Below are positions 1 through 51,982 of a stretch of 53,056 nt of DNA, in pieces. The notes beneath the pieces were generated by a model. That model did not search any database, had not been told where the DNA came from, and worked only from the letters and a program-made list of their open reading frames with translations. Position 1 is the first letter of the stretch. The number at the start of each line of letters is the position of its first letter. Origin of the DNA: a virus. Where the stretch lies: IMG/VR virus record IMGVR_UViG_3300033074_002003; one strand, written 5' to 3'. The position numbers and the translations under genes were made by a program.

Positions 1-38
1 GCAAGAAGCACAAGACAGTCGAGGGTGCTCCCGCACAG

Positions 39-314
39 GTGAAGCCCTCGAAGGCAGAGGTGGCAGAGGCGTTCGCCACACTTGTCCTCACGGAGGCCCG
101 CCTCGAACAGGGCGCTCGAGCCGTGATTCGTGGCGGTGGAGAGCTGACATTCGACATGAAGCTGATGGGCCCATTCATCGCGTGGGTGACAGGTGATGTT
201 CAGAAAGAGTGCGAAGCAGAACTGGAAGCGTCTTCTCTCACGTGGAAAGCAGTATCGCGTGAGGTCGTAGACGCGGCGAAGAAGTGGTACGTTTCGAAGA
301 TCGAAGGAAAGTGA
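39..314 (+). CDS. hypothetical protein (reading frame open to window edge; may be 5'-truncated)
   Basis: ORF with no in-frame stop upstream to position 3; no recognisable motif. Confidence 0.4.
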   Translation: MKPSKAEVAEAFATLVLTEARLEQGARAVIRGGGELTFDMKLMGPFIAWVTGDVQKECEAELEASSLTWKAVSREVVDAAKKWYVSKIEGK

Positions 315-2354: not shown

Positions 2355-4166
2355 ATGTACTTATTTGTCGAAATGAAACCGAAAAACAGCACTTCGCCGC
2401 GTGAGGTGCATCTCACAGCGCCGTCAAATACGCTCCGAGCCAACGCGTGGGGACAGGCCTTTCACCTGACAGAACCCGCGCCACCGTATGACGGTACGCC
2501 CGAGTCGATCCTTGCGATCGTATCGTGGTTGGGTGTAGAGAAAAGCGGGCGCTGGCGGCCCAAACCCGGGACGACGTATTGCAACGTCTATGCGTACGAT
2601 CTCTGCAACGCGATCGGAGCATATGCCCCTCGCGTGTGGTGGGGCAACAAATCAGACGCTGAACCCGTTCTGGGCAAAAATGTCTTTGAACTCAGCGCAA
2701 ATGCCCTCTACTCGTGGTTTGTGCAGCACAGCGAAGAGTTTGGTTGGAAGAAAGTTAAGACCCTAGACGAGCTGCAGGATGCGGCCAACGCTGGCAACGC
2801 CGCGGTCATTGTCGGGAAGAACAAGAACGCACAGGCAAGCGGACACATCTGTTGTGTCGTTCCCGAGTCTGGAAAGCTGATGGCAAAGCGCGTGGATGGG
2901 CAAGTCGTCCTACCCGTGCAGAGCCAAGCCGGTGCCTACAACTACGAACTGTCACTCATCAGTGAGTGGTGGAAGAGCCCGAGTTTTGCGGAGTTTGGGT
3001 TCTGGGTTCACTCGAAACAGGTTGCTGTACAACCCGCAGAAGAGCCACAGCCCGTAACGATCGTAGTGGATGCGACGCAACCTGTTCCCTATTTACCCCA
3101 CATGGGAACGAAGAACGCTCCTTCGGGATTCGGCGTCTGGATCGCATTTCAGGGAATGATCGGTTCGATCGACGAATCGATCAGGCGCATGAAAGCGATC
3201 GGTGCAACGTGGGTCGCGCCTCGCGCGGGCGTGGGCTCGAAGCGTGACGGAAACTGGACGCCCGAAAAAGCTCGTGCGGCGATTGCAAAGTACCACGCAG
3301 CGGGCATCAAAGTTTTTCCGTGGGTCTACTCGCGGCCCGACAGTTACCTTGAGGAGATTCCTGTCTTCAAAGCCCTCATGGATGAGGGCGCCGACGGAGT
3401 GTTCATCGACGCCGAAATTGAGTGGGAGGGTCCTGGTGGCGTGCACCGCGCCGCGGCGGCCGATTTCATGGAGAGACTCAGAGTTGAGCTCGGTGAAGGG
3501 TGTTTCATCGCTCACGCGCCCTTCCCGTACGTTCTCTGGCACCAGGATTTTCCGTACGTCGAGTTCGGAAGCAGGTGTGATGCCGTCTGTGACCAGCTCT
3601 ACTGGACAGAGATCAACGGCGCGAGCGCAGCTTCTCACGTCGAGAACACTGGGAAGCAGTGGGCTGAGTATCTCAAGAAGAATCCGACAGCGTGTAAGCT
3701 GCGTTCGCCGATCGGTATCACCTACGGCTCGGAGCTGAAGGGCGTCGCGAAGCCGCCCCCGGGCAAGATGCGCCCCGAGGACCTCAGATTCTTCATCGAG
3801 TGGTGCAAGAAGCAGTGCCTGCCATTCTACTCGATCTACTCGCTTGAGGCTTCGACGCCCGAGTCGATCGCAGTGCTCCAGGAACTCGCTGGGACGGATA
3901 CGTCAGTGTGCTTCGATGCGCCGCCAGAGGGATCGACATTTCCGCAGAGCAACTGGTCGACGTACCGCAACATCTTCAATGCGTGGCAGACACGCGATGA
4001 CGCTCACGACTTGATCGGTTCGCTCGCGGGTCCAGACGTACCAGAGCAGAAGAAAGAGGACGCGCTTCTCGCGCCAACAGATGTGCAGGGCCTTCCGTGG
4101 TACATTTCGTTCATTCGTTTTATACTTGGATTGCTAGCCGCACTCTTTAGCAAGAAATCAGGGTGA
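2355..4166 (+). CDS. putative multi-domain peptidoglycan hydrolase (Cys/His peptidase-like N-domain + glycoside-hydrolase-like TIM-barrel domain, C-terminal TM helix)
   Basis: 'GTTYCNVYAYDLCNAIG' ... 'SGHICCVVPE' Cys-His arrangement like CHAP/NlpC-P60; middle 'GFGVWIAFQGMIGS...IKVFPWVY...GADGVFIDAEIEW' resembles GH25/Rv2525c-like barrels; C-terminal 'WYISFIRFILGLLAALF' hydrophobic helix. Confidence 0.5.
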   Translation: MYLFVEMKPKNSTSPREVHLTAPSNTLRANAWGQAFHLTEPAPPYDGTPESILAIVSWLGVEKSGRWRPKPGTTYCNVYAYDLCNAIGAYAPRVWWGNKSDAEPVLGKNVFELSANALYSWFVQHSEEFGWKKVKTLDELQDAANAGNAAVIVGKNKNAQASGHICCVVPESGKLMAKRVDGQVVLPVQSQAGAYNYELSLISEWWKSPSFAEFGFWVHSKQVAVQPAEEPQPVTIVVDATQPVPYLPHMGTKNAPSGFGVWIAFQGMIGSIDESIRRMKAIGATWVAPRAGVGSKRDGNWTPEKARAAIAKYHAAGIKVFPWVYSRPDSYLEEIPVFKALMDEGADGVFIDAEIEWEGPGGVHRAAAADFMERLRVELGEGCFIAHAPFPYVLWHQDFPYVEFGSRCDAVCDQLYWTEINGASAASHVENTGKQWAEYLKKNPTACKLRSPIGITYGSELKGVAKPPPGKMRPEDLRFFIEWCKKQCLPFYSIYSLEASTPESIAVLQELAGTDTSVCFDAPPEGSTFPQSNWSTYRNIFNAWQTRDDAHDLIGSLAGPDVPEQKKEDALLAPTDVQGLPWYISFIRFILGLLAALFSKKSG

Positions 4167-4187
4167 CGAGCGCAGCGGGACACCAAG

Positions 4188-4898
4188 ATGTACGTCTCCT
4201 GTACCGTAGACCCAAACTTGCACATAGACGTCGAGACGTGTCAGGTCAAACAACCTATCGTTGTTCGTGTCAATGAGTTTGATGAGAAATCGGCGCAGAT
4301 CTTTGCGAGACAGGTTTCTATCGCAGAGGACATGGGACAGCCAATAATCCCTGTCGTGATAGACTCATACGGTGGAGATGTCTACAGTCTCCTCGCGATG
4401 GTGGACGTCATCAAATCTTGCAAGGCGATCGTGGCTACGATCGTCGAGGGAAAGGCGATGAGCTGCGCTGCCGTACTGTTCTCTTGTGGCACAGAGGGCT
4501 ATCGATTCGTCTCCGAGCACGCGACAGTGATGATCCATGACACATGGCAGGAAGACGATCGCCCGCGGAAAGCAGAGGATCTGAAGGTAGACGCCGCAGA
4601 ACTCGGGCGTATCAACAAGCTCTTCTACGAGATCCTCGCGGGCTCCACGGGTCACGATCCACAGTATTTCATCGATATGCTCTCGAAACACAATCGAGCG
4701 GACGTGTACTTCAGTGCGCAGGAAGCTGTGAAGCACAATATTGCGAATCACATCGGGATTCCTGACCTGACGCTCGAAGTGGCTGTGTCGTACAAGATTT
4801 CACTGACTGACGCACCCGAACAAGCTCCGCTCGCCGCATTGGTCTCAGACTTGCCGAAAAAATCCGTGCGAAAGAAAAAAGAGGCGGCACCGCGATGA
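4188..4898 (+). CDS. ClpP-like serine peptidase (S14 family)
   Basis: 'IIPVVIDSYGGDVYSLLAMVDVIKSCKAIVATIVEGKAMSCAAVLFSCG...ATVMIHD' matches ClpP core (INSPGG-like, GxAxSxA Ser, MIH His). Confidence 0.7.
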   Translation: MYVSCTVDPNLHIDVETCQVKQPIVVRVNEFDEKSAQIFARQVSIAEDMGQPIIPVVIDSYGGDVYSLLAMVDVIKSCKAIVATIVEGKAMSCAAVLFSCGTEGYRFVSEHATVMIHDTWQEDDRPRKAEDLKVDAAELGRINKLFYEILAGSTGHDPQYFIDMLSKHNRADVYFSAQEAVKHNIANHIGIPDLTLEVAVSYKISLTDAPEQAPLAALVSDLPKKSVRKKKEAAPR

Positions 4899-5116
4899 AC
4901 GCTGAGAATCGCAAGAGGATCGTAGAGGCGGCACGACGTATGGGCGACGAGCTGAACGGTCGCCTCCCGGAACACCGAAATCACCCTGACGGTAGAAATT
5001 CGTATGCCCACGTCTGGAGCGTCCTGAAGTCGCGATTCGGTGACTACAAAGAGCGGCCTGACGATGAGTTTGACGATATCATGCGCGCTATCGAGTCGTG
5101 TAAGTCAGATTTGTAA
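4895..5116 (+). CDS. hypothetical protein
   Basis: 73-aa ORF, ATGA-type junction with upstream gene. Confidence 0.35.
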   Translation: MNAENRKRIVEAARRMGDELNGRLPEHRNHPDGRNSYAHVWSVLKSRFGDYKERPDDEFDDIMRAIESCKSDL

Positions 5117-5179
5117 ATTTCCCACTTGAGCGGTATGATGTGCCTACTATGGGCGACCGTACCAGGGGGAAGAACTGAC

Positions 5180-6394
5180 ATGGGCGGGAATGCAAGGGCG
5201 ATCGATCGCGCCACAGGCAAAGAGATGCTCTTTGAGGGCAAACTCGCACACGCCGAGCGCATACACACCACTGCATTTGACGGGAAGTTCGCTTGGTACG
5301 TTCTCAAGACGCTTCTGCTGCTCGATCACGAGTGTGATAGCATCTGGGCTCAGAGCTCATTTGCACACCACGAGCTCTTCGGAAAGTGCCGGGCGTTCTC
5401 GGGTTCGTCAAGGTTGCTAATGGCATCTGAGACGAGCGGAAACAGAACACCTGAGCACTTGAGAGTGTTAGGTGATATCGATGTGATGATCCCACACGAG
5501 AAATTGGGTGAGCTGTTTGACGTTCTCGCGAGACTAGAGGGAAAGTCGCTGTGGCACAATCGTGTAACGTACGTCGGGCAGAACAAACACCAGCAGTCGG
5601 GACATCAGATCAACGCGATCTTCGCGTTTGCGCATCCGGAGTCGAGTTGGGAGCAGTTTGTTCAAATCGATTTTGAGGGTGTCGAATTCGATGCCAACGG
5701 GGTGCCAACTGAGTTCAGCGAGTTCGCACACTCCACATCACCCGCCGATGCTGACGCTGGCATCAAGGGCGTCGCGCACAAATATCTCCTGACAAATTTG
5801 ATCCGCGCCGCGTCAGAGCTGCAAGATGCGCTCGTATTGACGGAGAAATCTCCACCCCCGCCAGACTGTCGCATCTCGATGTCAAAGAAAATTCCCAGAG
5901 AATACGCGTTCTCTGTCGATCGCGGCCTCAGAAAGAAGCTCGAACCGGTCATGTACAACGGCGCGCAGTTTCGTGTCGGTGATAAGAGGGTATTTCGCGA
6001 GCTGGCGACAGACGAAAGCATCTACGATACTAACATCGCGAATATTGCGAAAGCTGCGCTGGGGAAGGGCGTTCACCAGAGCTACACTCATCCCTTTGAT
6101 GCGGGCGCGTGGACAATGTGGTCATTCGTGGGACTGTTGTTCCTCTGTCGTCACTACAGAAGCAACGCGATTATGTCGCGCGCGTTCGAACTGATGCTCG
6201 TAGAGAACCTCTACGGACCCGGTGCGCAGAAGCTCTCTCGTACGAGCTGTTGTGTAGATCAGGACGTGAAGAACAAGATCATCGAGAGGATGTACGTCGC
6301 GTTCCCGCACCTGAAAGAAGAGTTCGGTGAGCGTGTCGATGAGATGTCGCGCAAGTTTCAGGAGAACTACTTCGATGCTCGATCTCTCGATTAA
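5180..6394 (+). CDS. hypothetical protein, possible Pol-beta-type nucleotidyltransferase fold
   Basis: GGGGGAAG SD 8 nt before ATG at 5180; 'FSGSS...RVLGDIDVMIP' loosely resembles G[SG]...DxD NTase motif; located between Pnk and RNA ligase. Confidence 0.4.
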   Translation: MGGNARAIDRATGKEMLFEGKLAHAERIHTTAFDGKFAWYVLKTLLLLDHECDSIWAQSSFAHHELFGKCRAFSGSSRLLMASETSGNRTPEHLRVLGDIDVMIPHEKLGELFDVLARLEGKSLWHNRVTYVGQNKHQQSGHQINAIFAFAHPESSWEQFVQIDFEGVEFDANGVPTEFSEFAHSTSPADADAGIKGVAHKYLLTNLIRAASELQDALVLTEKSPPPPDCRISMSKKIPREYAFSVDRGLRKKLEPVMYNGAQFRVGDKRVFRELATDESIYDTNIANIAKAALGKGVHQSYTHPFDAGAWTMWSFVGLLFLCRHYRSNAIMSRAFELMLVENLYGPGAQKLSRTSCCVDQDVKNKIIERMYVAFPHLKEEFGERVDEMSRKFQENYFDARSLD

Positions 6395-7751
6395 GAAGGC
6401 AAACCTATCACAACAGCTGCCCCGCAGTTGTGAAGTCACAGAGAAGTACGACGGCACGAAACTGTCACTGCTGCGTGCTGGAGACGAAACTCTCCTGTCT
6501 TACAAGGGAATCATTATCGATCCGGTCGTTTTCCCGCGCGAGAAATCGGCGCTCGATGAGATTCGCGAGTTCTCGTGTGGGTACTCTCAGTACGCTCTTG
6601 TAGCTTCTGATGCACAAGGAAGCTTCGGTGGGTGTTTCGACGGCGCGGAGATGCTCTTCGAGTTCATCCAGCGCAAGCCGACAGTACTCCGCGAGTACGA
6701 CAGATATCACGATTTGATCGCAATCGCCTCAGCAGCATCAGATTATTTGCTTTCAGGCCAACGAGTTTACACTCTCCCGAGAACAGTGTGGTATCCGTGC
6801 TACCCAGAGAAGAACGGATGGCTTCCCGTCTTCCAGACACCAGCGAAAATTCTAGTTCCTGGGCAGGTGAGAACATACATTGACCTCAAAGAATATATTG
6901 AGGGCACCCAGTCGTCACTTGGAGGTGTTGCAGAGGGATGTGTTGTTCATAACGGGGCTACGGGTGAACTCACAAAGATCGTTCGAGACGACCAGTGCGA
7001 TCGTACGGTAAGAGCGAAGAAAAAAGCCATGACTGTTGGGTTTGATCGCGATCAGAAGTATTGGAACGCTGTGATCGGTTCGGCCTCACGTGTGGTCTCG
7101 AATTTCGAACACCCGTTTTTTTTCGACGGAGCACGACTGGAAGCGGCCCACGCTGCAGAGTTTCACGACTTCGTCAACGTGTCGCCACACAATCGGATGC
7201 GCGTCGCCGACGACATCTTCTTGTCAGCGACAATTGCGAGCTCGACAGTGAGGACATTCCCAGGCAACAAGATAGGATTTTACCCTGGCGCTTTCAAACC
7301 CCTGCATCGCGGGCACTGGAACGTCATCAAGCGTGCTTCTGAAGAGTGCGACACCGTGTTGGTCGTCGCTTCTGAGTCGGATCGCTGTGAAATTTCGCAC
7401 TCGCAGATGTTCTTGGCATGGAAGAAAATCTTCTTCGAGAAGTTGCCGCGCAATGTCGTGTTTCGCTTCTCGAAGAATCCGATACAAGAGTGCAAGAACG
7501 AGATCGAGAACATCCAAAAATACACGGGAGCTCGTACGACGATTTACACGGGCGAAGACGATGCAGACAAGCGACGGTCTGCATTTTTGGGTCAGCACGT
7601 CTCGATTGTCCCGCGCAACGGTGTCTCAAGCACAGAATTTCGTGCGGCGCTTCGACAGAGGATCCAACGAAGTGCACCCGACGAATTCATGCCAGAGTGT
7701 CTAAGCAGTCTAGAGTCGCGGCTGTACGTAGAACTTTTCCGTGACCGTTGA
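6375..7751 (+). CDS. RNA ligase (ATP-dependent, KxDG family) fused to C-terminal HIGH-motif nucleotidyltransferase (NadD/NMNAT-like) domain
   Basis: AGGAGA SD before ATG 6375; ligase motif I 'EKYDGTK', motif IV 'AEGCVVH', motif V 'LTKIVRD'; C-terminal 'GFYPGAFKPLHRGHWNV' (HxGH) and terminal 'VSSTEFR' (NadD ISSTxIR-like). Confidence 0.65.
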   Translation: MLDLSIKKANLSQQLPRSCEVTEKYDGTKLSLLRAGDETLLSYKGIIIDPVVFPREKSALDEIREFSCGYSQYALVASDAQGSFGGCFDGAEMLFEFIQRKPTVLREYDRYHDLIAIASAASDYLLSGQRVYTLPRTVWYPCYPEKNGWLPVFQTPAKILVPGQVRTYIDLKEYIEGTQSSLGGVAEGCVVHNGATGELTKIVRDDQCDRTVRAKKKAMTVGFDRDQKYWNAVIGSASRVVSNFEHPFFFDGARLEAAHAAEFHDFVNVSPHNRMRVADDIFLSATIASSTVRTFPGNKIGFYPGAFKPLHRGHWNVIKRASEECDTVLVVASESDRCEISHSQMFLAWKKIFFEKLPRNVVFRFSKNPIQECKNEIENIQKYTGARTTIYTGEDDADKRRSAFLGQHVSIVPRNGVSSTEFRAALRQRIQRSAPDEFMPECLSSLESRLYVELFRDR

Positions 7752-7792
7752 AGTTTGCCATTTCACGCTTACTTATCGTAGGTGGAAATCAA

Positions 7793-8266
7793 ATGAAAAT
7801 CAAGCTCAGCGAAGTTCGCAAGATTGTCAGAGAGGAACTCGCGGCGAAGTCGCAGAGGTCGGGCGCCAAGAATCTCAATGAGAACATCGGGTTTGCCACT
7901 GCACGCCCAAAGGGCGTTCTTCCGCAGACGTACGAGGACTTCCGCAAGTGTTTCGAGGCATCGTTCGTGAAGCTCTCACTGCACGGCATCGCCGGGAAGG
8001 TGATGAACCTCAACGAGAGCAATAGCGTCATTGACGTCCTGAGTGAGATGTGGACGATTGTCGAGCGTGAGAACAACTCTGGACTCACTGGTGCTCCGAA
8101 GCCACACTTTGCCGAAGGAAGGCAGTTCTGGGACTATTTCGGACCCTCGTTCGAGGCACCCCTCGCGAGGCTCATCGAATCGCAGCTCCCGGGAACGTCT
8201 CTTGCGAAGTCAAATACCAAAGAGCTTGCAAAGAACGTTATCGACATTTTGAAGGCTGGGTCATGA
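7793..8266 (+). CDS. hypothetical protein with conserved N-terminal leader 'MKIKLSEVRKIVREEL' (paralog family member A)
   Basis: AGGTGG SD 6 nt before ATG 7793; N-terminal 16 aa shared with 16580(-) and 47867(+) genes. Confidence 0.55.
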   Translation: MKIKLSEVRKIVREELAAKSQRSGAKNLNENIGFATARPKGVLPQTYEDFRKCFEASFVKLSLHGIAGKVMNLNESNSVIDVLSEMWTIVERENNSGLTGAPKPHFAEGRQFWDYFGPSFEAPLARLIESQLPGTSLAKSNTKELAKNVIDILKAGS

Positions 8267-8484
8267 CAGCAAAGAAGAAAGACGATAAAAAGGACGCAGA
8301 CGACAGCTGCCCTAGTGTCATGTCTGATGACACTGATATTTTGCTTGACGATGAGCTGGAACGCGAGAGCAAAGAGGGCAAAGAGAGCAAGCTTGTCGAT
8401 CCGAAGCTGCGCATGCAGATCAGACAGTACCTCCTAGCGATGGGACTGGCCGGAGTCAAGCGCTCTCACGTCCGCGTGAAGTAA
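8263..8484 (+). CDS. hypothetical acidic protein
   Basis: 73-aa ORF, ATGA overlap with previous gene. Confidence 0.35.
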   Translation: MTAKKKDDKKDADDSCPSVMSDDTDILLDDELERESKEGKESKLVDPKLRMQIRQYLLAMGLAGVKRSHVRVK

Positions 8485-8523
8485 ATCTGAACTTGTGACC
8501 CGGAGTGATGTATAGTCACTTTT

Positions 8524-9153
8524 ATGGGTTTCAAAGCACAGGTACTGATCGCGGATCCCCCGTGGGAATTTGACGACGAACTGAAGGCGATGCGCGACGG
8601 TACGGATCGAAGCGCAGTGTCGCAGTATCCCGTCCTGAACCTCGATGAGATTGCGAAGCTCGATGTTCGACAGTGCGTCGATACGTCTGGGTGTGTCTTG
8701 GCGCTCTGGTGTCCCAGCGTGCTGATCCCAGAGGGACTGCGTGTGATGTCGTCTTGGGGATTCAACTTCAAGGGCACGTATGTCTGGGTGAAGTCAAAGA
8801 AGACTGAGAGCGCGCTCGAGAAGATCGGGATCACGAAAGATCTCAATGACATTCTCGGGTTTGGAATGGGAAGGCTATTTCGACAGACACACGAGGTGGC
8901 TCTCATCGGAACGATGGGCAAAGTCTACGCGGGCCTCGCGAACAAGTCACAGCGGTCAGTGTGTGTCGCCGAAAACAAAGGACACTCGATCAAACCAGAT
9001 TCGCTTCACGAGAGCCTCGAGCTCATGTTTCCGGCAGCTCAGAAGCTAGAGCTGTTCGCGCGTCGCCCGAAAGACGGTTGGACGTGTATTGGCAATGAAG
9101 TGTGCGAGGGCGAAGACATTCGTGACTCGCTGAAGAGACTCGCTTCTGAATGA
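8524..9153 (+). CDS. MT-A70 family N6-adenine methyltransferase
   Basis: 'LIADPPWEFDD' DPPW catalytic motif near N-terminus, ~200 aa typical of phage MT-A70-like MTases. Confidence 0.7.
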   Translation: MGFKAQVLIADPPWEFDDELKAMRDGTDRSAVSQYPVLNLDEIAKLDVRQCVDTSGCVLALWCPSVLIPEGLRVMSSWGFNFKGTYVWVKSKKTESALEKIGITKDLNDILGFGMGRLFRQTHEVALIGTMGKVYAGLANKSQRSVCVAENKGHSIKPDSLHESLELMFPAAQKLELFARRPKDGWTCIGNEVCEGEDIRDSLKRLASE

Positions 9154-9168
9154 AAGACTCGCGCGCAG

Positions 9169-9720
9169 ATGGCAAAGTCAAAGAGAAAATTCACAGACGC
9201 TCAAAAGAGAGTGCTGCTTCTCAGCTGTAACTACGAGGTACTGAACTTCGTCTCGGACGTTCGCGCGATTCTCATGCTTACACGTGAGAAGGTGGACGTC
9301 ATCTCGCACTGGGACGATCACACTTTCAATACACCGAACGTCAAACTTCCGATTCCATCGATCATCCGTCTCAGATCGCCGATCCGTCGCAAGCACGGGC
9401 CCGTGCGGTATCACAGGATTGTAGTGTTTAGGAGAGATGGTTGGCGCTGCCAGTACTGCGGAATTACTGTCTCGAAGCGCGACGCGACCATCGATCACGT
9501 GAACCCACAGTGCAAGGGTGGGCGTACAAACTACAAGAACTGCGTCACCGCGTGTCGTGCTTGCAATCACAAGAAAGCGTTCAAGACACCCGAAGAAGTC
9601 GGAATGGCACTCATGTCAAAGCTCGAGATGCCGAACGTGCTTCACCTCTACAACATTGACGTGAGACACGGGTGGCACCCGTCATGGGACGATTTCATCG
9701 GGCACCTCAAGTCTACTTGA
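9169..9720 (+). CDS. HNH endonuclease
   Basis: 'GWRCQYCGITVSKRDATIDHVNPQCKGGRTNYKNCVTACRACNHKK' HNH/Zn-finger signature. Confidence 0.8.
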   Translation: MAKSKRKFTDAQKRVLLLSCNYEVLNFVSDVRAILMLTREKVDVISHWDDHTFNTPNVKLPIPSIIRLRSPIRRKHGPVRYHRIVVFRRDGWRCQYCGITVSKRDATIDHVNPQCKGGRTNYKNCVTACRACNHKKAFKTPEEVGMALMSKLEMPNVLHLYNIDVRHGWHPSWDDFIGHLKST

Positions 9721-10361: not shown

Positions 10362-10943
10362 TCAGCAGATCGAAGCGCGTCTAAGCAGGTATGACGCTCT
10401 CTCACGATCATCGATGAGCTGCGAAAGCATGTTGTCGATGCCCTTTGAGAGCGTGCCTGCCGACTCCATTTTCATGATCGCGTAGTTTGTAGCGCCCACG
10501 AGGCATTCCTCTGCTGCGAGGCTCAACCTCACGAGATCGGTGTCAGACGGTATCACAGACGTTTCCGAGCAGTAGATCGCCTTCATCCACTCTGTTACAG
10601 TCGCGACCAACCGAGCGACCCGCGTCATCTCGACGAGAGCAGCGCCGCCAGCTCCGACAGCCTTCTCAGCAACAGCGTCAACGTGCTCGAGCACCGATGA
10701 GTAGACGTCCTCAAACATCTTGTGATCGCCGAAGAAATCCTGCCCCCGTGCCTGCCAGTGGTGTGTCTGGTGAATGTGCGCGACACACTTGGTGAAGACA
10801 AGGACTGTCGCGAGCTCAGAGAACTGTGACTCCATGAACTCAATTTCGATTTTATCGAAAAGCTCTGTCACGTTCCTTGCCTGTGACTCTTCACCCGCTC
10901 CGACGACCGCAAACGTGTTGAACGGTGAGAACATTCGCTTCAT
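10362..10943 (-). CDS. Dps/ferritin-like protein
   Basis: 'HHWQARGQDFFGDHKMFEDVYSSVLEHVDAVAEKAVGAGG' matches Dps HWxxxGxxFxxxHxxFEE ferroxidase motif; AGGA SD before ATG (minus-strand start 10943). Confidence 0.6.
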   Translation of the reverse strand: MKRMFSPFNTFAVVGAGEESQARNVTELFDKIEIEFMESQFSELATVLVFTKCVAHIHQTHHWQARGQDFFGDHKMFEDVYSSVLEHVDAVAEKAVGAGGAALVEMTRVARLVATVTEWMKAIYCSETSVIPSDTDLVRLSLAAEECLVGATNYAIMKMESAGTLSKGIDNMLSQLIDDRERASYLLRRASIC

Positions 10944-11030
10944 GTCGATCCTACCTGTGCGAGTAAGTATCTCTCTTCTGGATACACTGTGTGAGCACAC
11001 CGTAAAATAACAGAAGGTTACCGTGACGCG

Positions 11031-11246
11031 ATGAAAATACACACGCGATTCATAGTTTACGTCGTGTTGGCATTTGTGTGTGCGGTGATCACAGCCGTGT
11101 CTGTCACCATTTGCATCGTTGCGCCGCACATGATGAAGCTTGTGTTCCCGTACGTCGTATTTTCGTGCGTCATCTCTGGATTTCTGATCGGAATGATCGT
11201 AACGAACATTTCGTTCATCTTCTACGGAAAGAAGAGTGATGTCTAA
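11031..11246 (+). CDS. small membrane protein (2 predicted TM helices)
   Basis: 71 aa, two hydrophobic stretches; overlaps start of next gene. Confidence 0.45.
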   Translation: MKIHTRFIVYVVLAFVCAVITAVSVTICIVAPHMMKLVFPYVVFSCVISGFLIGMIVTNISFIFYGKKSDV

Positions 11247-12219
11247 AACTGACACTAGGTCTATCGTCCTCGTCACCGGCGGCGCGGGATTTCTTGGTTC
11301 GCACATCTGTGACAGGTACAAGGACAAGTATCACGTTGTCGTCGTCGATAATTTCATGACAGGTAGGCGTGAGAACGTACCGGCGGGGTGTGAGGTCATC
11401 TCGATTGACGTCACGAGCAATCTCTTCCTCGAAGAGATGCGGATGCTGTATTACAAGCGCGATATCTCGAGGATCTTCAACTTTGCGTGTCCCGCTTCGC
11501 CACCGAAGTATCAGCTCGATCCCGTTCACACGATGATGACGTCTGTCGTCGGCACGAACAACACGCTGAAGCTTGCGCGCGATTTCGGTTCGATCTTCGT
11601 GCAAGCTTCAACGAGTGAGGTTTACGGCGATCCGGAAGTTTCTCCACAAGCAGAGTCGTATCGAGGTTGTGTCAATACGATCGGTCCCAGAGCGTGTTAC
11701 GACGAGGGCAAGCGCGCCGCCGAAGCTCTGTGCTACGACTACGCTCGAATGGGCACCAACGTGAGGGTCGCTCGAATCTTCAACACTTACGGTCCGAGAA
11801 TGGATGTCGATGACGGTCGCGTCGTCACGAATTTCGTGAAGCAGGCGCTGCTCGGCGACGACATCACGATCTACGGTGATGGTTCGCAGACACGATCGTT
11901 CTGCTATGTCAGGGACCTCATTGACGGCATCGTTGGCCTCGCTGAGACACTGAGCCCGCCTCAGCACCCCGTGAACATCGGAAATCCCACCGAGTTCACA
12001 GTTCGTGAGCTTGCAGACAAGGTGCTCGAGCTGCTACCAGAATCAAAGTCAAAGATCGTCATGTGTGATCTCCCGACTGACGATCCGAAGCAGCGCAAAC
12101 CCGACATTGGTTGTGCCGAGAAGTACCTCGGGTGGAAAGCCGGAATTAAGTTGGGTTGGGGACTGTCGATGATGATCGATTACGTTCGTGATGAACTGAA
12201 AAGGATGGGACGCCTGTGA
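11236..12219 (+). CDS. UDP-glucuronate decarboxylase (UDP-xylose synthase)-like SDR
   Basis: 'LVTGGAGFLGSHICDR' Rossmann, 'ASTSEVYGDPEVSPQAESY...GPRACYDEGKRAAEALCYDY' (YxxxK) closely matches UXS/dTDP-glucose-dehydratase-type extended SDRs. Confidence 0.7.
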   Translation: MMSKTDTRSIVLVTGGAGFLGSHICDRYKDKYHVVVVDNFMTGRRENVPAGCEVISIDVTSNLFLEEMRMLYYKRDISRIFNFACPASPPKYQLDPVHTMMTSVVGTNNTLKLARDFGSIFVQASTSEVYGDPEVSPQAESYRGCVNTIGPRACYDEGKRAAEALCYDYARMGTNVRVARIFNTYGPRMDVDDGRVVTNFVKQALLGDDITIYGDGSQTRSFCYVRDLIDGIVGLAETLSPPQHPVNIGNPTEFTVRELADKVLELLPESKSKIVMCDLPTDDPKQRKPDIGCAEKYLGWKAGIKLGWGLSMMIDYVRDELKRMGRL

Positions 12220-12465: not shown

Positions 12466-15400
12466 ATGTCTCGAGTTCCCAATCGGTTCTTTGGGTTGCA
12501 CGCCCACACTAGCGTGGGTAGCCCGTATGATGGGCTGGGATACCCTCCCGAGCATTTTGATTTCGCCATCCAGAACGGGATGGACGGGATGGCGATCACA
12601 GACCACGGGAACATGAACTCGTTCTCGCACGCCTACATGGCAGCCGAGGCGCTTCACAAGAAGGGCGTACACTTCAAGTACGTTCCTGGGTGTGAACTTT
12701 ACCTGCATCCCGATCTCGAGGAGTGGCGCAAAGAGAAGCTCCTTGACGAAGAGCTCAAAGGGATGAAGAAAGAGGCCGAGAAAGCTCGGAAAGCCTCTCG
12801 AGAGAAGGTTGTGACGCCCATCGAGGTCGAGACAGACGAGGCGGGTGAGGTGATCGATGTCACCAACGCGCTCACGATCGAAAACGAGGATGAATCGAAA
12901 TCGCAGAAGTTCTTCAATCCCATCAATCGCAGGCACCATCTCGTGGTCCTCCCACGAACTTCGGAAGGCCTTCAGAGGCTCTTTAACCTCGTGTCGATGG
13001 GATACATGGATGGCTTCTATCGATTCCCGCGGGTCGATTATTCGATGTTGCGCGCTCTCTCGGAGCGCGAACACTTCATTGTCAGCACCGCTTGTATTGC
13101 GGGCGTCCTGAATTTCGAGGTGCTGTCTGAGCTCCGCGGCGTGCCGTTCGAAGAGCTTCACCCACGTCTCTTGGACGATCCGAACCTCATGGCGCGTGTG
13201 CAGAGTAACATCGGCAACGCAGTCGATCGCCTTGCCGATTCTGTGGGCCGAGACAACCTCTTTGTCGAGGTACAGTTCAACAAGCTCGGTGCGCAGCACG
13301 TCTGCAACCGAGCGCTCATTGAGTTTGCGTCGCGGAACGGGTTCAAGCTCCTCGCGACAGCGGACTCTCACTACTTCAAGCCGGAAGTCTGGAAAGAGCG
13401 CGAGATCTACAAGAAGCTCGGCTGGCTGAACTACACCGACATTGATCCATCGAGCCTGCCAAAGAGCGTCGATGACCTGAAGTGCGAGCTCTACCCGAAG
13501 AACGCCTCCCAGATGTGGGAGGAGTACAAGAAGGGCAAGGGCGACCTCTCTTTCTACGACGATGACACGATCTGCGACGCCATCGAGCGCTCGCACGACC
13601 TCGCGCACCAGATCATCGGCGACATCAAGCCAGATCGCTCGATGAAGCTGCCCTCTTACGTCGTCCCTGAGGGAAAGACGGCAATGAAGGCGCTCATGGA
13701 CGAGTGCAGAAGCGGGATGATTTCGCTCGGTATTGCGAACAAACCCGAATACGTCGAGAGGCTGAAGCACGAGCTCAAAGTCCTCAAAGAACTGAAGGAT
13801 AAGGACAAGGACTTCTCGATCTACTTCCTGACGCTGAAGGCGATCCTTGACGTCGCACGAGAGAAGATGCTTCTCGGTCCCGGCCGCGGGTCGGGTGCCG
13901 GCTCCCTCATCTGTTACTGCCTCAGGATCACAGACGTAGATCCCATCAAGTTCGAGCTTCTGTTCGAGCGATTCCTCAACATTCACCGCGCCGAGCCGCC
14001 CGATATCGACACCGACGTCGCCGATCGAGATATGCTGTTGGGTCTCCTTCGCGAGAGATTCGGCAGTGACAACGTCATCCCAATCTCCAACTACAACACG
14101 TTCAAGCTCAAGACGCTCGTGAAGGACGTCGCGCGGTTCTACGGCGTTCCGTTCGAAGAGGCGGGCGCTGCTACGAAGACGGTCGACGAGGACGTTCGAA
14201 AGGCCGTGCTGAAGCACGGCATGGACAAAAACCTTTTCGTTCTTACGTACGAGGACGCGCTGAAGCACAGCCCGCCGTTTCGCGAGTTCCTCGAGAAGTA
14301 TCCACACGTCGCCGAGCCGATGCAGGTTCTCTTCAAACAGAACAAGGCACTCGGTCGACACGCGGGAGGTGTGATCGTCTCCGAGAAGATCAAGGAGCGT
14401 ATGCCCCTGATCACCTCAAAGGGAGAACCTCAGACACCGTGGGTCGAGGGGCTCAATTACAAGCACCTCGAAGAGTTCGGATGGGTGAAATTTGACCTGC
14501 TCGGCCTCGAAACGCTGCGAATCATTGCGCGAGCGATCGAGCTGATCCTGAAGCGTCGCTGCGGGATCGATCACCCGACCTTTGCGGATGTGAAGAAGTG
14601 GTTCGAAGAGAACATGTCCCCGCAAGTCATCGACTTTGACGATCCACACGTTTACGATCGCGTCTATAATGCTGGCAGGTGGGCGGGCGTATTTCAGCTC
14701 ACCGAATCGGGTGCGCAGAGGTTGTTCACGCGGGCGAAGCCAATGTGTCTCAATGACATTGCGGCTCTCACTTCAGTATACCGTCCAGGACCGCTCGCAG
14801 CGGGCGTCGATGACCTCTACATCGATGCGAAGAACGTGAAGCCGTACGACTGGGGGCACCCACTCATCAACGCGACGCTCGCGCCGACGTACGGGCTCAT
14901 CATCTTCCAGGAGCAGGTGATGCAGCTCGCGCACGAAATCGGCGGGTTCCCACTCGATGAGTGTGACAAGGTGCGCAAGGCGATCATGAAGCGCTCGATC
15001 TCGGGCGGCGACGAGGCGAAGAAGAAGGCCCAGGAGCTCAAAGAGAAGTTCGTGAAGGGCGCAGTCACGAAGGGAATCCCGGAAAGCATCGCCGACAACC
15101 TCTACGAGAAGATCCTGTACTTCGCTGGGTACGGTTTCAACAAGTCGCACGCGATCTCGTATGCAATGGATTCGTTCTGGTGCGCGTGGTTGATGACGTA
15201 CTACGAGCCCGAGTGGCTGTGCGCGTACCTCGAGTCGAAGTCAGGAAATCCTGATGACCGCGCGAAGGCATTCGGCGAGGTGAAGAGCCTCGGGTACGAG
15301 ATCGTTCCGATCGATATCAGCTACGCGACGAGCGGGTGGACGATCATCGACGGCAAGAAGTTCATGCCCTCGATGTCATCGTGTAACGGTGTCGGTGGCA

Positions 15401-16065
15401 CTGCCCTCGAAGAGCTCGAGAGCATGCGACCCTTCTCGTCTCTGAAGGAGATCCTGTGGCACGAGGACGGGAAGTGGCGACCCAGCAAGTTTAACAAGAA
15501 GGCGCTCGAGTCCCTCATCAAAATCAGGGCGTTCGAGTCACTCGATATCGTTGGTGAGGGCAAGCTCTTCGAGTCGTACAAGCAAATGCATGCCGTCCTC
15601 ATCGAAGGGTCCGTAGAGATCAAGAAGAGCGGCAAGCGCGATCCTTTCTGCGGGCAGAAGGCGTTCGAGGCCCTCATTGAATCAACGAAGGGCATCGGTG
15701 AGTGGACCAAACGGGAGCTCGCCGAATTCTCTCGTGAGGTGCTGGGTTCAACTGACGTCGGACTCTTGGTGACACCGGCAACGCAGGACCGCCTCGCCGA
15801 GAAGGGTGTGCGACCCATCGACGCCTGGGACAAGAAGGACCTCTACTGGGCCGTAATCACCGACTGTGTCGTGAAGAAGACGAAGAAAGGCAAGGACTAC
15901 CTCCTCTTCAAGCTGATGGGTGTCGGTGGCAAGGACGTAAAGTGCTTCTGTTGGGGTTGGAAGGGCGACAAGATGTACGTGCCCAACACACCCATCGTCT
16001 TGGAACTAGAGAAGGGCGACTTCGGTTTCTCGACGCAGGCATGGCGCGTGCGGGAGATCAAGTGA
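12466..16065 (+). CDS. dnaE: DNA polymerase III alpha subunit (DnaE-type, PHP + polymerase core)
   Basis: N-terminal PHP 'GLHAHTSVGSPYDGLG', polymerase 'LGPGRGSGAGSLICYCLRITDVDP', 'FNKSHA', 1199 aa. Confidence 0.9.
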   Translation: MSRVPNRFFGLHAHTSVGSPYDGLGYPPEHFDFAIQNGMDGMAITDHGNMNSFSHAYMAAEALHKKGVHFKYVPGCELYLHPDLEEWRKEKLLDEELKGMKKEAEKARKASREKVVTPIEVETDEAGEVIDVTNALTIENEDESKSQKFFNPINRRHHLVVLPRTSEGLQRLFNLVSMGYMDGFYRFPRVDYSMLRALSEREHFIVSTACIAGVLNFEVLSELRGVPFEELHPRLLDDPNLMARVQSNIGNAVDRLADSVGRDNLFVEVQFNKLGAQHVCNRALIEFASRNGFKLLATADSHYFKPEVWKEREIYKKLGWLNYTDIDPSSLPKSVDDLKCELYPKNASQMWEEYKKGKGDLSFYDDDTICDAIERSHDLAHQIIGDIKPDRSMKLPSYVVPEGKTAMKALMDECRSGMISLGIANKPEYVERLKHELKVLKELKDKDKDFSIYFLTLKAILDVAREKMLLGPGRGSGAGSLICYCLRITDVDPIKFELLFERFLNIHRAEPPDIDTDVADRDMLLGLLRERFGSDNVIPISNYNTFKLKTLVKDVARFYGVPFEEAGAATKTVDEDVRKAVLKHGMDKNLFVLTYEDALKHSPPFREFLEKYPHVAEPMQVLFKQNKALGRHAGGVIVSEKIKERMPLITSKGEPQTPWVEGLNYKHLEEFGWVKFDLLGLETLRIIARAIELILKRRCGIDHPTFADVKKWFEENMSPQVIDFDDPHVYDRVYNAGRWAGVFQLTESGAQRLFTRAKPMCLNDIAALTSVYRPGPLAAGVDDLYIDAKNVKPYDWGHPLINATLAPTYGLIIFQEQVMQLAHEIGGFPLDECDKVRKAIMKRSISGGDEAKKKAQELKEKFVKGAVTKGIPESIADNLYEKILYFAGYGFNKSHAISYAMDSFWCAWLMTYYEPEWLCAYLESKSGNPDDRAKAFGEVKSLGYEIVPIDISYATSGWTIIDGKKFMPSMSSCNGVGGTALEELESMRPFSSLKEILWHEDGKWRPSKFNKKALESLIKIRAFESLDIVGEGKLFESYKQMHAVLIEGSVEIKKSGKRDPFCGQKAFEALIESTKGIGEWTKRELAEFSREVLGSTDVGLLVTPATQDRLAEKGVRPIDAWDKKDLYWAVITDCVVKKTKKGKDYLLFKLMGVGGKDVKCFCWGWKGDKMYVPNTPIVLELEKGDFGFSTQAWRVREIK

Positions 16066-21560: not shown

Positions 21561-21602
21561 CGGGTCGTGCTACGTTGCACTTCCCTGCTGAAACGGGGAA
21601 AG

Positions 21603-23174
21603 ATGCAGAAAATTACGAAGCGCGATTGGGTGAAGTACTTTCCGTTTGACGCACCCCGAAAGGACCAAGAGGAGTTCATCGACTTCGCCCTGAACGCGTT
21701 CATGCGCGAGGGGAAGCGTTTTGTGATCGGTGAGCTCCCGATGGGCATCGGCAAGTCTGCTGTCGCCGTGACGATCGCGCGCTACCTGGCGGCGACCGAT
21801 CCCCCGACAGAACTAGACGACGAGGGCGAACCAATCGTGACGCGCGGCGCGTACGTGCTCACGACACAGAAGATCCTGCAGGAACAGTACCTCGCCGACT
21901 TCCAGAAGTTCGACATGGAGTCGATCAAGTCGAGCTCCAACTACCAGTGCAGATTCTACACAGAGCAGAGCTGTGCGGAATCACTGAGGGTGCTCACAAA
22001 GCTTGAGAGCCGCATCATGGGCACTCCGTTTTTCAAACAGTGCAAGGGGGCGTGTGCCTACAAGGAAGCCAAACAGGTTTTTCTGAGGGCAGAGATGGGC
22101 TGCACGAACTTCTCGTACTTCCTCGCGGAAACGATGTACGGCGGTGCCCTCGTCCCGCGCCAGCTGCTCGTGATGGACGAGGCTCACAATGTCGAGGGCG
22201 AAGTAGCGAAATTCGTTGCGGTGAAGATCGACCCTACGTCAGATCGCGAGGTCGTGAAACTTCCCGTTCCGTCGTTCGCAGACCAGGGCGCGGCCTTCGA
22301 TTGGGTGCGTGCTACCTACATTCCCGCTGCGTTGAAGATCAAGGACAAGCTCACGAAGAAGATCGAGAAGGCCATCGCGAAAGAGGACAAGCCCTCTCGC
22401 TCGACGATGCGCGCGATGAAGGACAACGAGTCGCTCGACAAGCACATCTGCAAGCTCAATCGGTTCGTTGACTCGTACAACCCTCGCGACTGGGTGTTCA
22501 ACGCGGGAGAAAATACGATTGAGTTTAAGCCCGTTGACATCTCTCGTCACACGGACTTTCACCTCTTCAAGCACTCGCCGAAGATTCTGATGCTGTCGGC
22601 GACGATCCTCGATTTCGATTTCTACTGCGACACGCTTGGTATCGACAAGTCGCAGGCGGCGTTCAGAAGCTTTGACTCGCCGTTTGACGCGGCGAACCGT
22701 CCCATTCACTACGTTCCCGTGGGAAAGATGAACGCCGGTGAGATCGACAAGACGCTGCCCTCGCTCGTCGAGATGGTGCGCGAGATCATGAAGCAGCATC
22801 CCAAAGACAAGGGTGTGATACATTGCTTTGCGGGCGAAACACCAATAAAAGTAGTTGATGGGAGTGTCGTGTGTGAAAAACGAATCGACTCTCTCGTTAT
22901 CGGTGACGCTGTCATTACGTGGAATGAGATGGGCGGAAGGTTTGAGACGAGTTGTGTCGACGCTGTCATCGACAACGGGAATCTCGCGTGTGTTGAGCTT
23001 ACGTTTGACAACGGTCGTACACTTACGTGCACACCAGAACACGAATTCTTGACAAGGAATCGCGGTTGGGTTACTGCAGCTGATCTAGATGAAAAAGACG
23101 ACGTGATTGATACGTTGGATGATACATATATGAATGCCACCTCACATCCTTCCCAAGTTGTTTCGAATCGGTGA
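21603..23174 (+). CDS. Rad3/XPD/DinG-family helicase, N-terminal fragment (motifs I-II + FeS Cys cluster) ending in split-intein N-fragment (IntN, ~116 aa)
   Basis: 'FPFDAPRKDQ', Walker A 'GELPMGIGKS', 'LLVMDEAHN' (DEAH), 4 Cys 'YQCRFY...QSCAES...KQCKGACAYKEAK'; intein block A 'CFAGET' at 22824, block B 'TCTPEHEFLT'; stop after IntN. Confidence 0.8.
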   Translation: MQKITKRDWVKYFPFDAPRKDQEEFIDFALNAFMREGKRFVIGELPMGIGKSAVAVTIARYLAATDPPTELDDEGEPIVTRGAYVLTTQKILQEQYLADFQKFDMESIKSSSNYQCRFYTEQSCAESLRVLTKLESRIMGTPFFKQCKGACAYKEAKQVFLRAEMGCTNFSYFLAETMYGGALVPRQLLVMDEAHNVEGEVAKFVAVKIDPTSDREVVKLPVPSFADQGAAFDWVRATYIPAALKIKDKLTKKIEKAIAKEDKPSRSTMRAMKDNESLDKHICKLNRFVDSYNPRDWVFNAGENTIEFKPVDISRHTDFHLFKHSPKILMLSATILDFDFYCDTLGIDKSQAAFRSFDSPFDAANRPIHYVPVGKMNAGEIDKTLPSLVEMVREIMKQHPKDKGVIHCFAGETPIKVVDGSVVCEKRIDSLVIGDAVITWNEMGGRFETSCVDAVIDNGNLACVELTFDNGRTLTCTPEHEFLTRNRGWVTAADLDEKDDVIDTLDDTYMNATSHPSQVVSNR

Positions 23175-26443: not shown

Positions 26444-27319
26444 TTGTTAGACGGTGATGACACAACTGATTCATCGAACATAGTTAAAGCTATGAGCAAA
26501 TTTGTTGGTCACTTTAAGTGTGAATTTTGTCTGGAAGACTTCGAAAAAGAAGTGCATTCGAGTGCGAAGAAAATGCCACGATTTTGCAGCAAATCGTGTG
26601 GTAGCAAGTGGCTACACGCAAATGGCAAAAAGTGTACACTAAACAGCAAGACGACATACGAATGGTGGATTGAAAAACACGGACAAGAAGAAGCTGATAG
26701 ACGATTTAGTGCTTGGAGACAAAAGATCTCAGAGCGTACGTCTGGCGAAAACAATGCGATGTTTGGTAAGCACGCACACACTCACGGGTTGAAAAAATAC
26801 GCGTTCGAAAAGACGGGTAAGTCACTCGAACAGATCCATGGTGTTGAGCTAGCAAAAGATATCAAGCATAGAGTCTCAGTGAGTATGACGGGCGAAAACA
26901 ATCCTGCGTACGGGAAAGTATATCCAAATGCGGGACGATCTGTCAAGGGTCACTATAAAGGCATCTTCTTCCGAAGTCTATTTGAGTACTCGTTCTTGAA
27001 GCACCTGGAGTCAATAGGAGTCGAGTTGACAGACGTAAAGTGTGAATCGTTCAGGATTCCGTATGCTGAGGGCAGAACGTACATACCTGATTTTTATGTT
27101 CCTGAACACAAAACTGTTTACGAGGTGAAACCCTCGTCTTGGCACACTAACACAACAGTGATTGCAAAATGTGAAGCTGCAAAGAGATTTCTGGCTGAAA
27201 AGGGACTTGAGTTCAAGATGGTCACCGAGCTTGATTTCCCGAAGATACGCTTCGACGAAGCACGCAAAGATCCAAACGTAGTTTGGAAGGAGAAGTCATT
27301 TGAGCACTTCAAGAAGTAA
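26444..27319 (+). CDS. free-standing homing-endonuclease-like protein (Zn finger + PD-(D/E)XK), paralog of 23134..23946
   Basis: 'FKCEFCLEDF...RFCSKSCGSKW'; 'RTYIPDFYVPEHKTVYEVKPSSW'; AT-rich island. Confidence 0.55.
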   Translation: MLDGDDTTDSSNIVKAMSKFVGHFKCEFCLEDFEKEVHSSAKKMPRFCSKSCGSKWLHANGKKCTLNSKTTYEWWIEKHGQEEADRRFSAWRQKISERTSGENNAMFGKHAHTHGLKKYAFEKTGKSLEQIHGVELAKDIKHRVSVSMTGENNPAYGKVYPNAGRSVKGHYKGIFFRSLFEYSFLKHLESIGVELTDVKCESFRIPYAEGRTYIPDFYVPEHKTVYEVKPSSWHTNTTVIAKCEAAKRFLAEKGLEFKMVTELDFPKIRFDEARKDPNVVWKEKSFEHFKK

Positions 27320-27848: not shown

Positions 27849-28089
27849 CGAGGGCGACGCAGACTCTGGGATGAGGGAAGCACTTGAGATGTGCTTCAAC
27901 ATGGCATATGGGACGGCGATCGATATCGCTGAGAAGCAACCGGGCGTGAGCGCGCTCTACGTCGAATCGCAGGCGAAGACTGTGATGCGCGCCGCGCTTC
28001 AGGCGACGGGTCTCTTCTCGCCGAGCGAGATCGACATGCACGTTGATTCGATCACCGTGAGAAATGCTGCAGAGAGGGATTCGTCGTGA
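27808..28089 (+). CDS. hypothetical protein
   Basis: 93-aa ORF overlapping kinase 3' end; weak. Confidence 0.25.
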   Translation: MRFSPRSKDGQMTDEGDADSGMREALEMCFNMAYGTAIDIAEKQPGVSALYVESQAKTVMRAALQATGLFSPSEIDMHVDSITVRNAAERDSS

Positions 28090-33079: not shown

Positions 33080-33098
33080 TGTCTTGAAAGGAAAGAAC

Positions 33099-51967: not shown

Positions 51968-51982
51968 CGTGTGATACAGTTT

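Follow-up and report, generated by a model that had tools for sequence, protein, structure and literature searches.

The window analysed here is a 53,056-nucleotide stretch of viral DNA (IMG/VR virus record IMGVR_UViG_3300033074_002003), numbered along one strand from 5' to 3', and its subject is the gene at 6375-7751, whose product carries a ligase-type adenylyltransferase domain and a HIGH-motif nucleotidyltransferase domain in one chain. A preliminary description, made from the sequence alone, had called this product an RNA ligase fused to a NadD/NMNAT-like adenylyltransferase and its architecture non-standard. The single-chain fusion of a polynucleotide-ligase-type domain to a HIGH-motif adenylyltransferase is borne out by folds, motifs and collinear relatives, and we find in addition that the gene is preceded by, and overlaps with, that of a nucleotidyltransferase (NTase) of the Pol-beta fold. 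The pair comprises the following features:

5180..6394, plus strand: 404-amino-acid Pol-beta-fold NTase, the upstream partner, whose stop overlaps the start of the ligase gene by 20 nt
6375..7751, plus strand: gene for the 458-amino-acid ligase-HIGH fusion protein, stop codon included (intact open reading frame (ORF), ribosome-binding site, collinear homologues)
6375..6989, plus strand: ligase-type adenylyltransferase domain, residues 1-205, Rnl2/Rnl5/REL1-like, of the covalent nucleotidyltransferase superfamily
6444..6446, plus strand: Lys24 codon; the residue is predicted to accept AMP as the nucleophile of motif I (EKYDGTK)
6990..7259, plus strand: all-helical linker, residues 206-295, placed by secondary structure (helices 205-294 in the model) and conservation
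7260..7748, plus strand: (T/H)xGH nucleotidyltransferase domain, residues 296-458, archaeal-NMNAT-like
7305..7316, plus strand: HxGH motif H311-R-G-H314, placed by conservation; it binds the alpha- and beta-phosphates of ATP in the superfamily
7623..7643, plus strand: ISxTxxR motif V417-SSTEFR423, aligned with SGTEIR of archaeal NMNATs

The ORF at 6375-7751 on the plus strand is open from ATG to stop and translates into 458 residues. We take ATG 6375 as the real start because an AGGAGA ribosome-binding site lies at 6360-6365, 9 nt upstream, and because the N-terminus MLD[LIF]SI falls at the aligned position in all seven of the closest homologue clusters (P0005 has an eight-residue extension before it); the GTG start at 6327 given in a mechanical ORF list was rejected. 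For the NTase gene, a TTG start at 5126 in the same list was likewise rejected, and 5180-6394 is preferred because the family consensus begins MGGNxRAIDR and a AGGGGGAAG box lies 5' of ATG 5180. The extreme N-termini of both partner proteins are strikingly conserved family-wide (MGGN, 5180-5191; MLDxSI, 6375-6392), which suggests a functional role for their first residues. GC content is even across the ligase-HIGH gene, with no compositional sign of foreign origin, and promoter and terminator scans gave counts not above the shuffled expectation. Every motif string quoted in the preliminary description is present in the translation, namely KYDG at residues 24-27, EGCVVH at 187-192, LTKIVRD at 199-205, FKPLHRGH at 307-314 and VSSTEFR at 417-423. 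Checking for a frameshift revealed none, and a split into two genes was rejected on the intact ORF and on collinear two-domain relatives, at least 69 of 154 representative relatives aligning end to end across both domains.

From the family alignment, AlphaFold2 produced a confident model (predicted local distance difference test 81.5, predicted template-modelling score 0.79) that divides the protein into a beta-rich domain at residues 1-205, a helical segment at 205-294 and a Rossmann-like domain at 299-458. As modelled, the N domain has the adenylyltransferase fold, and RNA ligases lead its structural matches: Naegleria RNA ligase NgrRnl (5cot, score 13.4), trypanosome REL1 (1xdn, 11.4) and T4 Rnl2 (1s68 and 2hvq, 11.3 and 10.6), followed by DNA ligases at 9.8 or less. 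At the sequence level, the window protein has no match to PF09414 (RNA_ligase); its homologues approach that profile, P0005 (full-length, 28% identity) scoring 30 bits against a cut-off of 27 and others 12-26 bits. No sequence-level link was found between the N domain and the phage lineage's own canonical Rnl.

Conservation was assessed over 119 diverse members of 440-680 amino acids. Motif I reads E23-K24-Y-D26-G27-T28, with lysine in 112 of the 113 occupied positions at Lys24, aspartate in 112 members and glycine in 113. The acidic residues of motifs III and IV are as firmly kept (E96 and E187 each in 116/116, G188 in 115/116), and K24, D26, G27, K29, K44, E92, E96, K101, T103, Y108, S180, E187, G188, K201, Q207 and R213 are all 94-97% conserved. 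Invariants peculiar to the family are the N-terminal MLDxSI, Y43-K44, K101-x-T103, Y108, Q207 and R213; within the linker, Q207, R213, K217, Y229 and D280 are conserved. At motif V, K201 is present in 116 of 116 members, and position 203 is V, L, Q, I, T or S in all 116 and never K or R. The second lysine of K-x-K is therefore missing, on an equivalence drawn from motif spacing only; the sister phage's canonical Rnl2-like ligase retains K-A-K at this motif.

Our comparison with T4 Rnl2 goes by such spacing and uses the T4 motif strings EKIHGTN, GEF, EGYVLK and IKCKN. On this basis we take E34, K35, T39, R55, E99, E204, K225 and K227 of T4 Rnl2 to correspond to E23, K24, T28, K44, E96, E187, K201 and V203 of the window protein, respectively, with Lys24 at the place of K35 in the T4 string E34-K35-x-x-G-T. 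The engineered K227Q form of T4 Rnl2 reportedly seals only pre-adenylylated 5' ends, and a ligase domain that naturally lacks this lysine may serve as a tool enzyme.

The preliminary description had named an assignment of the C half to a ligase oligonucleotide-binding (OB) or C-terminal domain as fatal to its claim; the C half is neither. It matches PF01467 (Cytidylyltransferase-like) at 26.5 bits, against a gathering threshold of 21, as well as the phage NMNAT family phrog_3462, and its structural matches are NMNAT (2qjt, 12.8), VPA0413 (3h05, 12.1), PPAT (4nah, 11.7) and NaMNAT (5llt, 11.7). When a 72-sequence family profile (A3) was compared with solved HIGH families, the best agreement was with archaeal NMNAT MJ0541, which aligned from end to end with its SGTEIR motif and the helix behind it (E 8e-12), then with NadR-type NMNATs (E 2e-11 to 1e-10), M. 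thermautotrophicus NMNAT (E about 1e-9), PPAT (E about 7e-8) and NadD (entry 8aih, E 1.4e-5). The HIGH type claimed earlier is upheld, whereas the likeness to NadD is not, archaeal NMNATs and NadR types being far closer. By profile comparison, the C domain is of the NMNAT lineage, nearest to archaeal and NadR/NadM types. H314 is found in 115 of the 119 members, and position 311 holds histidine in 40 of them and threonine in 65, the classical T/HxGH pattern, and S418, T420 and R423 of SxTxxR are kept wherever that segment aligns. Because catalytic residues are conserved in both, the ligase and HIGH active sites look functional.

The family of the upstream NTase counts at least 94 clusters, lacks a Pfam assignment and is represented by the function-unassigned phrog_19290. 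The NTase carries the Pol-beta signature (hG[GS] ... [DE]h[DE]h ... third carboxylate) on a modelled Pol-beta palm fold, and in fold it comes closest to Pol mu, Pol beta, Pol lambda, TdT and African swine fever virus (ASFV) Pol X. Identity with RlaP (PF10127) was rejected, the hhalign probability against the RlaP of L002 being 0.2%, with no Pfam match. The NTase and ligase-HIGH genes overlap in five lineages, by 20, 20, 1, 8 and 4 nt, and these lineages otherwise differ in their neighbours; judging from such overlaps, the ligase-HIGH gene is translationally coupled to that of the NTase. Elsewhere the partners share one polypeptide: a hidden Markov model of the NTase finds it N-terminal to ligase-HIGH in P0129, P0125 and P0090 and C-terminal to it in P0034, P0026 and P0023, and in P0144 an NTase (BLASTP 1e-15 to that of the window) is fused to the HIGH domain alone, so that three one-chain orders exist (NTase-ligase-HIGH, ligase-HIGH-NTase and HIGH-NTase). 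The C-terminal extension of P0021 showed no significant hhalign match to the NTase family. Eight of nine independent NTase loci have a HIGH domain of the family no more than 2 kb downstream, ligase-fused in seven and stand-alone in L008. These gene overlaps, fusions and adjacencies are evidence that the NTase and the ligase-HIGH protein work together.

The fusion is a widespread, unstudied phage family and not a one-off. A word-indexed search returned only eight clusters, whereas in an exhaustive profile search of 1.84 billion representatives 1612 proteins passed E<=1e-3; at E<=1e-30 there were 229 clusters, the majority of them two-domain. Among the best 154 relatives, most of those beyond the at least 69 that align across both domains are about 500 amino acids long and aligned through HxGH, and a few are stand-alone ligase-like (about 320-350 amino acids) or stand-alone HIGH (about 180-210 amino acids) proteins. 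Database names are 'hypothetical' or 'cytidyltransferase-like', and PHROG 27149, which covers both domains, is function-unassigned. The identical fusion protein occurs on 14 contigs, one of them of 305,889 bp; near-identical DNA was not found in the cultured-phage collection, and cultured carriers of the family are the Vibrio phages pv27, Va1 and phiKT1024.

The HIGH domain is fused with the ligase domain, with the Pol-beta NTase or with DUF6267 (PF19782, about 400 amino acids, common in marine metagenomes), to which it is N-terminal in P0151, P0137 and alignment A4. DUF6267 has a BFVD match in Synechococcus phage S-PM2 (A0A0M6VVW4), and its invariants K-W-D-G, Q-G-D, P-E-G-F-V and K-L-V-x-R succeed one another as motifs I, III, IV and V do in ligases. 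Comparison of DUF6267 with the ligase profile by hhalign gave only a 20-column local resemblance at a probability of 0.4%, and no PDB match; a ligase-like nature is not confirmed by profile comparison and stays a motif-level lead. Extra domains in the relatives P0142 (1-425), P0137 (1-440) and P0125 (806-1180) contain PD-(D/E)xK-like strings, which read NPSDIW...ISLKK and GPGE...DIIF...ELK; the extra N- or C-terminal domains of P0142, P0137, P0125 and P0013 have no Pfam match.

Comparison with close relatives adds an evolutionary observation. Measured in 100-nt steps, L002 and L003 are 88-100% identical to the window, mostly at least 95%, across 4000-6400 and 7800-9400, and 51-73% identical exactly over 6401-7700, with 80% in the 7701-7800 step (window 6401-7750 against L002 10027-11365). 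The fusion protein itself is 57% identical between the window and L002/L003, whereas the upstream NTase is 96% identical. The breakpoints of this low-identity stretch coincide with the borders of the ligase-HIGH gene, and the divergent allele retains all catalytic residues; the pattern is a gene-exact, cassette-like allelic replacement or a diversification hot-spot. Gene-exact replacement patterns are typical of genes in host conflicts, which hints that the ligase-HIGH protein may be under conflict-driven diversification.

The window is part of a large (jumbo) phage. Three further features bear on the module:

1..314, plus strand: another RNA ligase gene, canonical and Rnl2-like, of which only the 3' end falls inside the window; recognized by its likeness to L002
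888..1817, plus strand: T4-type polynucleotide kinase-phosphatase (Pnkp; PF25109 HAD_PNKP 174.5 bits, AAA_33 61.3 bits)
7793..8266, plus strand: downstream 157-amino-acid ORF that may share the transcription unit; its conservation is confined to close relatives

The product of 1-314 is 96% identical to the C-terminus of the 334-amino-acid PF09414 ligase of L002, and in syntenic relatives RlaP lies 5' of Rnl and Pnkp (L001 363-1451, L002 2071-3153), placing a canonical RlaP-Rnl-Pnkp set about 4 kb upstream of the fusion gene. The Pnkp belongs to this canonical RNA-repair set and not to the fusion module proper, and since the set is already present in the phage lineage, the fusion is a second, distinct ligase module. 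Neither these separate canonical genes nor the upstream Pol-beta-fold partner figured in the preliminary description; both were found here. RNA-repair genes occur within 10 kb of the module elsewhere too: L008 has RlaP together with a kinase, L007 a 2H phosphoesterase, and Vibrio phage pv27 a CCA-adding enzyme. By tblastn, the downstream ORF is 99% identical in L002 and L003 and 46% identical in L001, with no match in L004-L006, and it has no Pfam or PHROG match.

Beyond the module, the window encodes DNA polymerase III alpha, a ClpP-like protease, an MT-A70 methylase, HNH and GIY-YIG endonucleases, thymidylate synthase, thymidine kinase, a DEDD exonuclease, a FEN-like nuclease and six tRNAs. 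The polymerase gene (12466-16065) is uninterrupted and encodes 1199 amino acids; in the sister phage about 1.4 kb is inserted in or next to it (L002 18751-20158, at window position about 15143), encoding a 298-amino-acid ORF with a faint ROS_MUCR match that may be a mobile element. A helicase-like ORF at 21567-23174 (ResIII/DEAD_2) has C-terminal sub-threshold Intein_splicing and Hint matches, possibly an intein or its remnant. Genes of homing-endonuclease type lie at 26444-27319 (TnsA-like/NUMOD3), 28753-29655 (GIY-YIG/NUMOD) and 9169-9720 (HNH), and among them are DNA methylase genes at 8524-9153 (MT-A70) and 28086-28940 (N6_N4_Mtase). Auxiliary genes unusual for a phage encode a carbon-nitrogen hydrolase (37434-38171), a protein with an Fe/Mn superoxide-dismutase C-domain (33060-33785) and a ferritin-like protein (10362-11327, minus strand). 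The tRNA cluster at 51894-53006 comprises Lys-CTT, Ile-GAT, Ser-GCT, Asp-GTC, Gln-TTG and Gln-CTG.

Two folds, the catalytic motifs of three enzymes, the pattern of fusion and adjacency, and the canonical RNA-repair genes nearby form the basis of our proposal, to which we give roughly even credence, that the fusion protein and its coupled NTase constitute a three-activity fill-and-seal module of the phage for broken polynucleotide ends, most likely RNA. A candidate substrate would be, for example, a tRNA cut by host nucleases. The upstream NTase would first add or fill in the lacking nucleotide or nucleotides at the 3'-OH; the Rnl2/Rnl5-type N domain, by means of Lys24 and motifs III, IV and V, would then join the 3'-OH to the 5'-phosphate through A-pp-N; and the C domain, with ATP and its HxGH and ISxTTxR-type motifs, would adenylylate a 5'-phosphorylated acceptor to give an A-pp-X that serves ligation. 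What we infer is the order of these steps, RNA rather than DNA as the substrate and, most of all, which acceptor the HIGH domain uses. RNA is favoured because RNA ligases outrank DNA ligases in the structural comparison, because an OB domain is absent and because RNA-repair genes recur nearby. As to the acceptor, nicotinamide mononucleotide (NMN), for a local supply of NAD+, is a tentative candidate, something else altogether is an equally tentative one, and a polynucleotide 5'-phosphate end or AppRNA is possible if doubtful; we regard NMN and the polynucleotide 5'-phosphate as about equally likely.

Several points weigh against the fill-and-seal proposal. The phage already carries a complete canonical set, so a second repair module needs a separate rationale, and because early genes cluster in the genomes of large phages, guilt by association carries less weight. 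The N domain of the window protein has no Pfam match of its own, and no solved ligase is similar to it in sequence, even with the 72-sequence profile. The NTase resembles DNA polymerases of family X, only at a moderate Z (8.7), and shows no similarity to RlaP. The NTase of L009 has no partner within 10 kb, and that of Campylobacter phage CP220 does not adjoin a ligase-HIGH gene, the next gene being fibre-like. CP220 gp101 was considered as a partner of that NTase and rejected, as a fibre-like protein without a match to any family profile.

The rival that survives best, though we consider it unlikely, is that the C domain is a true NMN/NaMN adenylyltransferase making NAD+ beside the ligase, either feeding an NAD+-using ligase or repair step or sustaining repair when host defences deplete NAD+. 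The preliminary description had offered a coupling of NAD+ synthesis to ligation, or else the supply of an unusual adenylyl donor, as possibilities. The closest relatives of the C domain in both sequence and fold are NMNATs, and its P369-I-Q-E372 loop matches P-V-Q-D or P-I-K-D of archaeal NMNATs. However, the four solved NMNATs that we aligned share an acceptor loop D-[IL]-x(4-6)-W, whose tryptophan we take to stack on the pyridine ring of NMN, and the corresponding window segment, P-I-Q-E-C-K-N-E-I-E-N, lacks it, as does the family consensus, with no conserved tryptophan in the region among the 119 members. The HIGH domain is also basic, with a median isoelectric point (pI) of 9.0 in the family (interquartile range 8.5-9.3) and of 9.3 in the window protein, against 6.1 and 5.2 for the aligned parts of two archaeal NMNATs. 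There is ample documentation of NMNATs in phages and of conflicts centred on NAD+ (PMC7824862; PMC9503650). Phage NMNATs characterized so far have Nudix or ribosylnicotinamide kinase as fusion partners and go together with NadV (PMC7824862), whereas the partners here are exclusively nucleic-acid enzymes. A scan of roughly 40 window ORFs (53 kb of a genome of about 306 kb) and of nine related loci turned up neither NadV nor Nudix nor ribosylnicotinamide kinase. Rnl2-type ligases, moreover, use ATP, and a domain Ia-like NAD+ module is absent. With the NMN-pocket tryptophan lost, a basic pI and such fusion partners, plain NAD+ synthesis appears less likely than homology alone suggests, and the same features call for caution over NMN as the acceptor. 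The missing second lysine of motif V is a further point against plain NAD+ salvage.

Less probable still, in our estimate, is that the C domain transfers AMP from ATP to a polynucleotide 5'-phosphate, giving AppRNA that the ligase domain seals, or that the reverse reaction, driven by pyrophosphate, rescues abortive AppRNA. This is the same chemistry as ATP + NMN -> A-pp-N, and an NMNAT-lineage domain would have been re-targeted from NMN to write or erase A-pp-N for a ligase without the second lysine of motif V, a conjecture that we likewise hold improbable. A polynucleotide acceptor would explain together the missing lysine (non-lysine in 116 of 116 members, with K-A-K kept in the sister phage's canonical Rnl), the basic charge, the lost NMN-pocket tryptophan and the role of the HIGH domain as a fusion hub for the ligase domain, the Pol-beta NTase and DUF6267, whose KxDG...EG...K stands in ligase order. 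Such an activity is, however, without precedent, and we know of no HIGH-family enzyme that adenylylates polynucleotide ends. The near-invariance of Lys24 suggests that the ligase still self-adenylylates, the K227 equivalence comes from motif spacing and not from residue-level structural alignment, and the conserved basic residues K29, K44, K101, R213 and K217 could replace the missing lysine. E. coli NadD and NadR, for their part, were reported to show neither capping nor decapping of RNA (PMC8131947).

Because the NTase is PolX-like and without RlaP similarity, a DNA substrate also has to be weighed, and the corresponding reading is that the module repairs DNA, a PolX-like gap-filling polymerase acting with a nick-sealing ligase as in base-excision repair or end joining and guarding the phage genome from host nucleases. 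The NTase's best fold matches, the gap-filling polymerases mu, beta and lambda, TdT and ASFV Pol X, speak for it, as do the PD-(D/E)xK-like strings of P0142, P0137 and P0125, which no profile confirms; the absence of an OB domain and the recurrence of RNA-repair genes as neighbours speak against it, and we judge it improbable. That the fusion is an artefact, with two genes merged by a sequencing frameshift or chance motifs in an unrelated protein, is already refuted by the identical protein on 14 contigs, the hundreds of collinear two-domain relatives and the conserved catalytic residues.

Returning to the fill-and-seal proposal, its novelty would be that ligase-based repair acquires an accessory enzyme, the HIGH domain, and a partner, the NTase, that are both new. 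RNA-repair enzymology rests, to our knowledge, on few ligase families (Rnl1-5 and RtcB) and their healing partners, none of them with a HIGH-motif adenylyltransferase. No description of a ligase-HIGH fusion was found in the literature, including comparative papers on phage RNA repair and NAD+, a search that did not extend to the 2016 RNA-repair survey (PMC5062991). The architecture is non-standard to that extent, as the preliminary description had it, but not rare, being that of a large metagenomic phage family. This large uncharacterized family joins Rnl-type, NMNAT-type and PolX-like enzymes by fusion and translational coupling, which point to a distinct repair or counter-defence pathway. 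If the conjecture of a re-targeted NMNAT-lineage domain were true, the protein would set a precedent among HIGH-superfamily enzymes by acting on the 5' ends of polynucleotides, the three-step ligase reaction would be naturally split between two active sites, and the phage would possess a repair machine of NTase, ligase and adenylyltransferase, with the ligase-HIGH gene exchanged as a cassette among nearly identical phages. Research on non-canonical capping asks whether any NMNAT-type enzyme can work on 5' ends of RNA (PMC8131947), and the fusion protein is a concrete, clonable candidate for such a role.

Set beside known systems, the module has partial likenesses. Like the RlaP-Rnl-Pnkp systems, it associates a Pol-beta-superfamily NTase with an RNA-ligase-type enzyme, and there the precedent is that RlaP, working with an RNA ligase, adds one or two nucleotides to damaged RNA before sealing (PMC12776372; PMC7824862); unlike them, its NTase is not RlaP and is closer to family X polymerases, the conserved pair has no kinase-phosphatase, and the extra HIGH adenylyltransferase has no counterpart. 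The coupling of a nucleotide-adding Pol-beta-fold enzyme to a nick-sealing ligase, a fill-then-seal logic, recalls both the repair pairs of family X polymerase and ligase (in ASFV, Pol X and the viral ligase; elsewhere Lig4 with Pol mu or lambda) and the trypanosome editosome (TUTase with REL1). Compared with the ATP-dependent, nick-sealing T4 Rnl2, Naegleria NgrRnl (Rnl5) and trypanosome REL1, the fusion protein has no detectable sequence similarity, and its family lacks the second motif-V lysine throughout and has its own invariant residues and a C-terminal HIGH nucleotidyltransferase. Compared with archaeal NMNATs (MJ0541, MtNMNAT) and NadR/NadM types, the HIGH domain of the family is basic, not acidic, and without the acceptor-loop tryptophan, and in the members examined it is never fused to Nudix or ribosylnicotinamide kinase. 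Because K-x-K of motif V and the acceptor-loop tryptophan are each absent, the fusion protein, although like an Rnl2/Rnl5-type ligase and like an NMNAT, should not, on these sequence grounds, be classed as a typical representative of either one.

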